Shown: one piece after another, positions 11,054 to 15,525 of the stretch
Position numbering within the stretch: position 1 is the first letter of the stretch
Layout: each line of letters starts with the position of its first letter
NCBI GenBank assembly: GCA_003971905.1
Contig: RSEE01000077.1
Span: 248,001 to 312,000 of the forward strand
Reading direction: 5' to 3'
From: Moniliella sp. 'wahieum'
Taxonomy: Eukaryota
Length of the DNA: 64,000 nucleotides
Translations under genes and position numbers: made by a program
Notes under the pieces: generated by a model
Told to the model about the DNA's origin: nothing
Seen by the model: the letters and a program-made list of their open reading frames with translations, nothing else
Databases searched by the model: none

Positions 11054-12537
11054 TTAAGCGGGACCTTTGCGACGAGTGGGTTCGTTACGCTTAGGTTTCA
11101 TCTTGCCCGCCCGCCCGAAAATACGGGGGGTGCACTCTGCGGTTTCCTGTGGGATGGGACTCTCATCTCTGCGCCTCGCTGGGGGGCCTCGAAGCGCCTG
11201 CGAGGGTACGAGGGGCCATCGATCTGGGGCAGGTGCAGGGCCAAGCGACGGAACATGCTGTGCAGGTTGTATTGCAGTTCGGCATGCGAAGCCTCCATGG
11301 TACGAAGACGGGCAAAAAAAAGATGGCCATGTTGTTGGCAGCAATTTGGGCCATTGCATCCACCACGGCCTGCGCCACCCGGTTTCCAGTAAGCGCTTGC
11401 CTTTGGATTTCGCCAAACACCACGCGTGACGCACCAAACAACCGGCTTGCCGCGCCCCATCGCACCACAGCCAACTTGTGTGTCGTCTTTTTCCCCGCCA
11501 CGACCCCCATTCGCAGCACGCGATTCTCCTCAGCGTTCTGAATGGCATTTTGGGTGTAGACCAGACGATCGAACTCCCGAATGCGGGGGCAGCCTTTCGT
11601 CTCTGGTGGGTTCGCGCCCAACATTTCTCTCCAGGGCAAGGAAGGGTCAGCTAGGGCACCTACCCAATGCCGCCGCATCACATAGGGTTCGACCAGCGCA
11701 GGCGCCCACACTGCCTTGTAGATCGGCCTTCGCACTTGGGCCGCTGCCGCTGTGTCGAGACCCGGACCTTGGGCACAGGAGGGTCGCGCTTGCGCTGCAC
11801 CGTCCAGATCTTGGCATTGAACACGGTCGAATTGAAGCCAGGTAGTTTACCAGGCCCATTGTACTTGCGCGGTTGGAACCAAGTGTAGGGAGCTTGGAAG
11901 GGAACGTGTCGAATCTGATATTGCAAGCCTCCAGTTAGTCCAGTCGTGCGGATAGAAGAAAAAAGGGCGGAGGAAAGAAAAACACATACCTGCAAAGGAA
12001 CGCGTTGGTTCACTGCGGCCCGAATGATGTCCAGCTCCTCCTTCCAACCAGGGTAGACAGGCACAAGCGAGTTGAGATCGGGCGCTGCCCCAGGGGAAGG
12101 AAGCTGGGCCCAGTCTGCGTCGGACTGCAACGTGTCGAGATCGAAAAGGGGGAGAGAGGCGGGGAGAGAGCCCGTGGAATCGGGTGCGGGCCGGGGCTGC
12201 GGGGAGGGGAAAGGGAAGTGGACGTAAATCTCTTCGCGCTGGTTGGTGGGGGAAATGACAGGCTCAGGGAATTTGGCCTGGTCAACCGGGGGGAGATGCG
12301 GGGACTGCGGGCCCTTCTTGTTATTGCCCTTACCCTTGGGGCCGTTTTTGGGACCCTTGGCGTGCTTCTCCTGCCGGGCTTGTGCTGGGCGTGGGGAAGG
12401 CTTGGTGCTGGGAGCGGCGGCGGCGGCACCGGCACGCACCAGGGCCGAGGTGCTGAGACGTGCCCTGGACACACATGGGCCGGGCGGCAGAGCAGCACGA
12501 AGCAGCTGGGGGGTCCGAGGGTGCCGACGGGGCGCAT
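11054..12537 (-). CDS. Putative mitochondrial protein with an RnpA (bacterial RNase P protein)-like C-terminal domain; intron 11915-11989
   Basis: Presequence-like N-terminus (..RARLSTSALVRA) and a GTATGT..GACTAAC..CAG intron. Domain motifs are RMGVVAGKKTTHKLAVVRWGAASRLFGASR and, after fixing an A8 homopolymer at 11314-11321, AIFF(F)ARLRTMEASHAELQYNLHSMFRRL. Confidence 0.6.

Positions 12538-13159: not shown

Positions 13160-15525
<2,366 letters not shown>

Follow-up and report, generated by a model that had tools for sequence, protein, structure and literature searches.

The 64,000-nucleotide stretch of Moniliella sp. 'wahieum' contig RSEE01000077.1 analysed here (positions 248,001 to 312,000 of the forward strand, referred to in full as the window) carries one minus-strand gene at about 12537-11098, which is distributed over three reading frames in the present assembly. 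The gene is real and conserved and can be repaired. The C-terminal third of its protein is slightly more likely than not to be homologous to RnpA, the protein subunit of bacterial RNase P. The best explanation overall, to which about an even chance is assigned, is an intact basidiomycete nuclear gene encoding a very diverged bacterial-type RnpA module that would act as an organellar RNA-binding cofactor. A role in mitochondrial RNase P would be a further step and is considered unlikely; nevertheless, on the strength of its sequence the gene is a candidate for the protein partner of the basidiomycete mitochondrial RNase P.

Orthologues and gene structure

A search with the 147-amino-acid middle piece of the gene against 1.84 billion representatives returned the two orthologues P0001 (298 amino acids, 70% identity, E 1.4e-60) and P0002 (265 amino acids, 54% identity, E 2e-43). 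A further match, the 1536-amino-acid repeat protein P0003, was aligned in ten stretches and set aside as compositional. Searches with P0001 and with the A1 profile returned P0001 and P0002 only, and a cluster look-up added only P0004, which is 99% identical to P0001. The total among the 1.84 billion representatives is three relatives, all of them located on short Logan contigs, and two metagenome contig scans with 265 and 47 pattern matches, respectively, gave no confirmed relative. The range of the family is very narrow. The gene is divided as follows (window coordinates).

12535..12537, minus strand: candidate start codon ATG, from the three-frame translation; its frame differs from that of exon 1
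12508..12513, minus strand: C6 homopolymer, the likeliest place of a putative third assembly insertion or deletion, from the homopolymer list and the frames
11990..12507, minus strand: exon 1, comprising an R/A/S-rich stretch free of acidic residues (..RARLSTSALVRAG..), a K/G/N-rich basic stretch, a P-rich region and ..VPVYPGWKEELDIIRAAVNQRVPLQ, from the open frame and the codon-position G+C pattern
11915..11989, minus strand: putative spliceosomal intron of 75 nucleotides with GTATGT, branch CTAAC and 3' CAG, from sequence signals
11766..11914, minus strand: exon 2, first frame, with the conserved N-domain motif PFQAPYTWFQPRKYNGPGKLPGFNSTVFNAKIW, from the alignment with P0001
11763..11772, minus strand: approximate place of a one-base assembly gap (frame change), where the orthologues read ..P-x-[VL]-PGLD.. 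without interruption
11316..11756, minus strand: exon 2, second frame, 147 amino acids, DTAAAA...MAIFF, with the identities to P0001 and P0002 given above
11230..11588, minus strand: candidate RnpA-like module of ~120 amino acids spanning the T8 frame break, from hhalign
11424..11513, minus strand: RMGVVAGKKTTHKLAVVRWGAASRLFGASR, a strand-loop-helix segment matching the RxGxxVxKK...AVxRNR core of RnpA with a degenerate RNR part, from hhalign and Pfam
11314..11321, minus strand: A8 run on the plus strand (T8 on the coding strand), one base short in the window, from the X1 contig and from P0001, which is in frame
11098..11319, minus strand: exon 2, third frame, FFARLRTMEASHAELQYNLHSMFRRLALHLPQI... 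(FFARLRTMEASHAELQ...), with a poorly conserved basic tail and the stop codon TGA at 11098-11100, from translation and family alignment

Across the four rows of the family alignment 63 columns are invariant, with a concentration in the N-domain and the C-terminal module. The conserved blocks are PFQAPYxWFQPRKYxGPGxLPG, VEPxxMxxHWxGxLxD, QNAEExRVxRxGVxxGKK, LAVxRW..ASR and MAIFxFxRLxTxEAS. Because conservation is concentrated in these blocks while the tail varies, the protein is regarded as being under constraint. In the first frame of exon 2 alone, 30 columns are invariant between the 49 residues of the window and P0001. The N-domain motif PFQAPYxWFQPRKYxGPGxLPG...VFNAxxW, located at 11800-11905 on the minus strand, is near-invariant in this comparison and has no Pfam match. 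The idea of a bL34-RnpA fusion, modelled on the rpmH-rnpA operon and on a resemblance of FQP...GF in the N-domain to L34, was rejected, as hhalign against 30 L34 sequences gave a P of 0.17 and a probability of 0.3% and no L34 match was found in Pfam.

The first frame runs from exon 1 through the intron into the opening of exon 2 (IRHVPFQAPYTWFQPRKY...). An initial annotation, made by a model from the letters of the DNA, had placed a spliceosomal intron at 11915-11989, and the canonical signals GTATGT...CTAAC...CAG are found exactly there, enclosing 75 nucleotides. The intron contains no in-frame stop, and its splicing is predicted from these signals. The accompanying claim of a nuclear, eukaryotic gene holds as well, with the intron present and a basidiomycete-type SPE3-LYS9 gene adjoining; bacterial contamination is rejected on the grounds of this intron and of the fungal genes nearby.

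Similarity of the C-terminal module to RnpA

The reference set of RnpA sequences was taken from E. coli and from a collection of 61 proteobacterial genomes, of which 30 loci were used. It comprised 32 extracted open reading frames (ORFs), of which four nearly identical to E. coli were removed and the remaining 28 aligned. Comparison of the fungal family with these 28 sequences by hhalign resulted in 88 collinear columns with a probability of 48.5%, a P of 1.8e-4 and a score of 31.8, residues 111-228 of P0001 being paired with positions 27-117 of the 119 positions of RnpA. For 150 column shuffles the mean score was 12.4 (standard deviation 2.4, maximum 24.0), so that none reached 31.8, and the reversed alignment scored 9.5. 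Likewise, none of 153 decoy ORFs of at least 130 amino acids from the same window reached the family score, the maximum being 22.2. Taken as single sequences, P0002 scored 28.3, P0001 21.4 and the window pieces 18.8 (on RnpA 7-84) and 16.5 (on RnpA 67-116); upon addition of the orthologues the score thus increased from the 28.3 of P0002 alone to 31.8.

The RnpA pattern reported in the initial annotation at ~11415-11520 corresponds to RMGVVAGKKTTHKLAVVRWGAASRLFGASR at 11424-11513, which hhalign sets on the RxGxxVxKK...AVxRNR core. The R, G, V, G, K, K, A, V and R of this strand-loop-helix are invariant within the family.

A profile hidden Markov model (HMM) of the 28 RnpA sequences ranked P0002, P0004 and P0001 above all 1049 ORFs of the window, and the window pieces took the third and seventh places among those ORFs. 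In the reverse direction, the eight best of the 678 ORFs from the 30 bacterial loci, as ranked by the HMM of the fungal module, were all RnpA ORFs (Mann-Whitney P 1.3e-12). Seven of them had been flagged by phmmer, and the eighth, L114, is located at the known rnpA place; RnpA ORFs are mutually related, and the result for the top eight counts as one family-level observation. Among the 24,736 families of Pfam, PF00825 (Ribonuclease_P) was the sole one listed for P0002 at E<=10, with an E of 0.21 and 12.1 bits for residues 85-121 on profile positions 27-60. Furthermore, the results of an ESM Atlas query with residues 100-240 of P0001 include, in tenth place and with a score of 0.85, a cluster of 286 amino acids, 100% eukaryotic and mostly from Basidiomycota, in which 18% of the 98 members carry PF00825; this is a lead only.

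For a single comparison, the likeness to RnpA exceeds chance; it is not significant library-wide. Homology is nonetheless rated as slightly the more probable state of affairs, because the match is collinear, falls on the best-conserved residues of RnpA, which are invariant in the family, is reciprocal and grows with the orthologues.

Evidence against the relationship and alternative explanations

A number of results weigh against a descent of the module from RnpA. The match of P0002 to PF00825 (12.1 bits) lies 10 bits short of the curated cut-off of 22.3 bits, and the three window pieces and P0001 gave no PF00825 match at E<=10. In NCBIfam, no RnpA-related family was found for seven sequences, the one match, at E 0.96, being unrelated. 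In sequence searches of the PDB, neither the family profile nor P0002 matched an RnpA chain at E<=10. Applied to the 61 whole proteobacterial genomes, the family profile matched 20 times at E<=10; the matches are spread over 16 genomes, and not one is located at a known rnpA place. A second ESM Atlas query, with the whole of P0002 and restricted to named clusters, returned only unrelated clusters, none with PF00825. The hhalign P of 1.8e-4 would lose its significance if corrected for ~20,000 library families, and the RnpA hypothesis itself originated in the very motifs responsible for the hhalign score. With regard to the domain claim of the initial annotation, the likeness holds up in profile comparisons, in which it is specific and works in both directions, whereas the PF00825 match remains below the cut-off and the NCBIfam, PDB and 61-genome searches are without RnpA.

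RnpA folds into an alpha-beta sandwich with a left-handed beta-alpha-beta crossover. AlphaFold2 models of P0001 and P0002 from five-row alignments have mean predicted local distance difference test (pLDDT) values of 39.1 and 36.1, respectively, and are unusable; both show the module, at low confidence, as entirely helical. A departure from RnpA concerns the RNR motif, the P RNA-binding signature of RnpA, which forms the basic helix A-x-x-R-N-x-x-[KR]-R-x-x-[RK]. The family reads LAV[VT]RW[GD][AV]ASR[LV].G[AM][SA]R at this place, so that three Arg remain, the first one and two further on, while the Asn and the K/R pair have disappeared; the motif is degenerate, as had been stated in the initial annotation.

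A different explanation for these observations is a lineage-restricted, fast-evolving protein with an unrelated and possibly all-helical fold, in which the likeness to RnpA reflects a chance match of two short motifs, one basic and one hydrophobic. This is a serious possibility, if somewhat short of an even chance. In agreement with it, all single-sequence and profile-to-sequence searches are empty or below significance, the AlphaFold2 models are helical at low confidence and the second ESM Atlas query is negative; in addition, just three relatives contribute to a thin profile (effective number of sequences, Neff, 1.4), and the best same-window decoy (22.2) outscores P0001 alone (21.4) in hhalign. 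However, about 90 of the 119 RnpA positions are matched collinearly, among them the best-conserved RnpA residues, which are invariant in the family too. The reciprocal HMM rankings, the rise of the hhalign score with the orthologues, the listing of PF00825 as the sole family for P0002 and the presence of a PF00825-carrying Basidiomycota cluster among the ESM Atlas neighbours also argue against coincidence.

Alternatively, the domain may truly be derived from RnpA and no longer take part in RNase P, serving instead as a general RNA-binding module in mitochondria, nucleus or nucleolus. Such a reuse is held to be less likely than not, yet because the RNR motif is degenerate it is at least as likely as a role in mitochondrial RNase P. 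It would be in keeping with the insertion of ~20 amino acids that follows the degenerate helix, with the large extra N-domain and the K/G/N-rich basic stretch, and with the limitation of the family to a very narrow lineage. A far-reaching form of the RNase P proposal has basidiomycete mitochondria retaining a vertically inherited, nuclear-transferred descendant of alphaproteobacterial RnpA as an RNase P subunit, which would have co-evolved with a drastically reduced P RNA, with loss of the RNR motif and gain of an N-terminal domain compensating for the missing RNA; this scenario is held to be improbable.

Frame breaks and assembly quality

The break within the A8 run can be examined in an independent public run. 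A 210-nucleotide contig from this run (X1, Logan contigs) matches window positions 11149-11357 and differs by one inserted base behind 11316, with no other difference in 209 nucleotides. The extra base is located inside the A8 run and restores AIFFFARLRTMEASHAELQ, which reads F-F-F-A-R-L in frame, and P0001 carries exactly AIFFFARLRTMEASHAELQ in one frame. Both observations confirm the homopolymer correction proposed in the initial annotation (the AIFFF reading). The domain had also been described there as split across frames, in accordance with the different frames of the 11316-11756 and 11098-11319 pieces. The X1 contigs cover positions 11149-11357 only of this gene; the break near 11763-11772 is bridged by both P0001 and P0002, which read ..VPGLD.. 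at this place.

Upstream on the same strand, at 13160-15525, the window contains a SPE3-LYS9 gene, apparently one chimeric reading of spermidine synthase and saccharopine dehydrogenase, which is split over at least five frames. Chimeric SPE3-LYS9 genes are a known basidiomycete kind. The Sacchrp_dh_C domain of this neighbour is found in three frames, which adjoin one another on the Pfam profile (positions 1-41, 37-98 and 90-265). Another X1 contig, covering the SPE3-LYS9 gene, has four bases that the window lacks, inserted at 14969, 15012, 15042 and 15056. In view of the X1 insertions and the SPE3-LYS9 breaks, the window is considered to come from a base-dropping assembly and the frame breaks of the RnpA-like gene look like assembly artefacts. 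ORF-based annotation anywhere in the window will therefore miss or truncate genes. Rfam (at the gathering score) and tRNA scans of window positions 1-64000 revealed no family and no tRNA gene.

A pseudogene in decay, with frameshifts that are real mutations, would also explain why two and probably three frame breaks are needed within 1.4 kb, and is very improbable. One break is missing from the otherwise identical X1 contig, the same type of break occurs in essential neighbouring genes at abutting Pfam profile positions, and the orthologues are intact at 54-70% identity.

N-terminal region and proposed domain organisation

The string RARLSTSALVRA, at the end of the N-terminus that the initial annotation had called presequence-like, is real and lies in the minus-strand frame carrying exon 1. 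In the three-frame translation ATG does not occur in this frame ahead of the intron. The triplet at 12537-12535 is an ATG of another frame and can be brought into the RARLSTSALVRA frame only by the gain or loss of one base, a third frame correction which the initial annotation did not mention; we infer that it is most simply made in the C6 run at 12508-12513. Between about 12400 and 11990 the exon-1 frame shows the codon-position G+C pattern of coding DNA, and this pattern is lost upstream of 12537, which fits a start near 12537.

The leader, PQLLRAAL...AQARQ, comprises 47 residues with six Arg, one Lys and no Asp or Glu (manual count), the ATG being out of frame with it. It is followed, at about 12310-12375 on the minus strand, by the K/G/N-rich basic stretch KHAKGPKNGPKGKGNNKKGP. 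For this stretch, a function as nuclear or nucleolar signal, and not as part of a mitochondrial protein, is equally conceivable and would speak against an organellar cofactor. The orthologues are uninformative on exon 1 because their proteins are ORF calls that start inside exon 2, and the exon-1 frame piece itself had no relatives among 3161 candidates.

After repair, the gene would encode a protein of about 450-480 amino acids in four parts: an Arg-rich leader without acidic residues, a basic, proline-rich linker, the conserved N-domain (PFQAPYxWFQPRKY...VEPxxMxxHW) and the C-terminal module of ~120 amino acids. The latter would most likely be a very diverged bacterial-type RnpA domain that retains the strand and loop RxGxxxGKK, the beginning of the RNA-binding helix (AVxR) and, in MAIFFFAR...L..MFRRL, a hydrophobic strand with the amphipathic last helix, with most of the basic RNR residues gone and ~20 extra residues between the RNR helix and the last strand. 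As an organellar RNA-binding cofactor the protein may pair with a reduced RNA of the mitochondrial RNase P, or its RnpA fold may be reused for another RNA. Homology, fold, localisation and RNA partner are in each instance what we infer from the sequence.

Comparison with known RNase P proteins

The profile match to bacterial RnpA (the C5 protein, PF00825) is collinear over RnpA 27-117. Shared features are the R-x-G-x-x-x-[GS]-K-K strand and loop, the A-V-x-R helix start, the hydrophobic strand ending in A-R and the amphipathic C-terminal helix. The Arg of RxG presumably corresponds to the E. coli RnpA residue that is mutated in the classic temperature-sensitive allele. In contrast to bacterial RnpA, the family has other residues in place of the Asn and of most basic positions in the RNR motif (RWGAASRLxGxSR), and the fungal module carries the insertion of ~20 residues after the RNR helix. 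Bacterial RnpA is a free-standing 13-kDa protein, whereas the fungal module would represent the C-terminal third of a protein of ~450 amino acids whose gene is eukaryotic, nuclear and intron-bearing.

Nuclear RnpA-type genes that serve an organelle-encoded P RNA, the arrangement considered here, are described for Ostreococcus tauri and other prasinophytes and for Andalucia godoyi (PMC4919922, PMC7050145). The nuclear-encoded RnpA of Ostreococcus (PMC4919922) and the diverged, mitochondrion-targeted RnpA of Andalucia (PMC7050145) are recognisable by standard domain models (COG0594, PMC7050145) and keep most of the conserved residues, whereas the fungal family is not recognisable in this way. 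Yeast Rpm2p shares with the Moniliella protein the proposed role of a nuclear-encoded partner of a reduced mitochondrial P RNA. By contrast, Rpm2p is a protein of 105 kDa, unrelated in sequence and found only in close budding-yeast relatives (PMC3790967, PMC4919922).

Possible implications for fungal mitochondrial RNase P

According to PMC3790967, Rpm2 is limited to budding yeasts, the proteins of other fungal mitochondrial RNases P are unknown and the bacterial P protein was held to have no eukaryal homologues; protein-only RNase P (PRORP) is missing from fungi (PMC10941002). The background given in the initial annotation largely agrees with the literature and is to be updated in one respect, since rnpB has been reported in the mitochondrial DNA of some basidiomycetes, namely Microbotryum, Schizophyllum, Ustilago maydis and Hannaella (PMC11277600, PMC8193148). 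Within the excerpts covered by our literature search no fungal RnpA homologue was reported; the possibly relevant survey of Lechner et al. 2015 (Mol Biol Evol) lay outside that coverage.

Should the likeness to RnpA be due to chance, the gene would be just another lineage-restricted fungal protein. If it reflects homology, the module would extend the very patchy eukaryotic distribution of RnpA, with prasinophytes and Andalucia, to fungi. If the protein moreover serves in mitochondrial RNase P, fungi would have their first RNase P protein of bacterial type, and the protein component of the fungal mitochondrial enzyme beyond budding yeasts would be identified, for which the nuclear RnpA-like gene of Moniliella offers a concrete and testable candidate.
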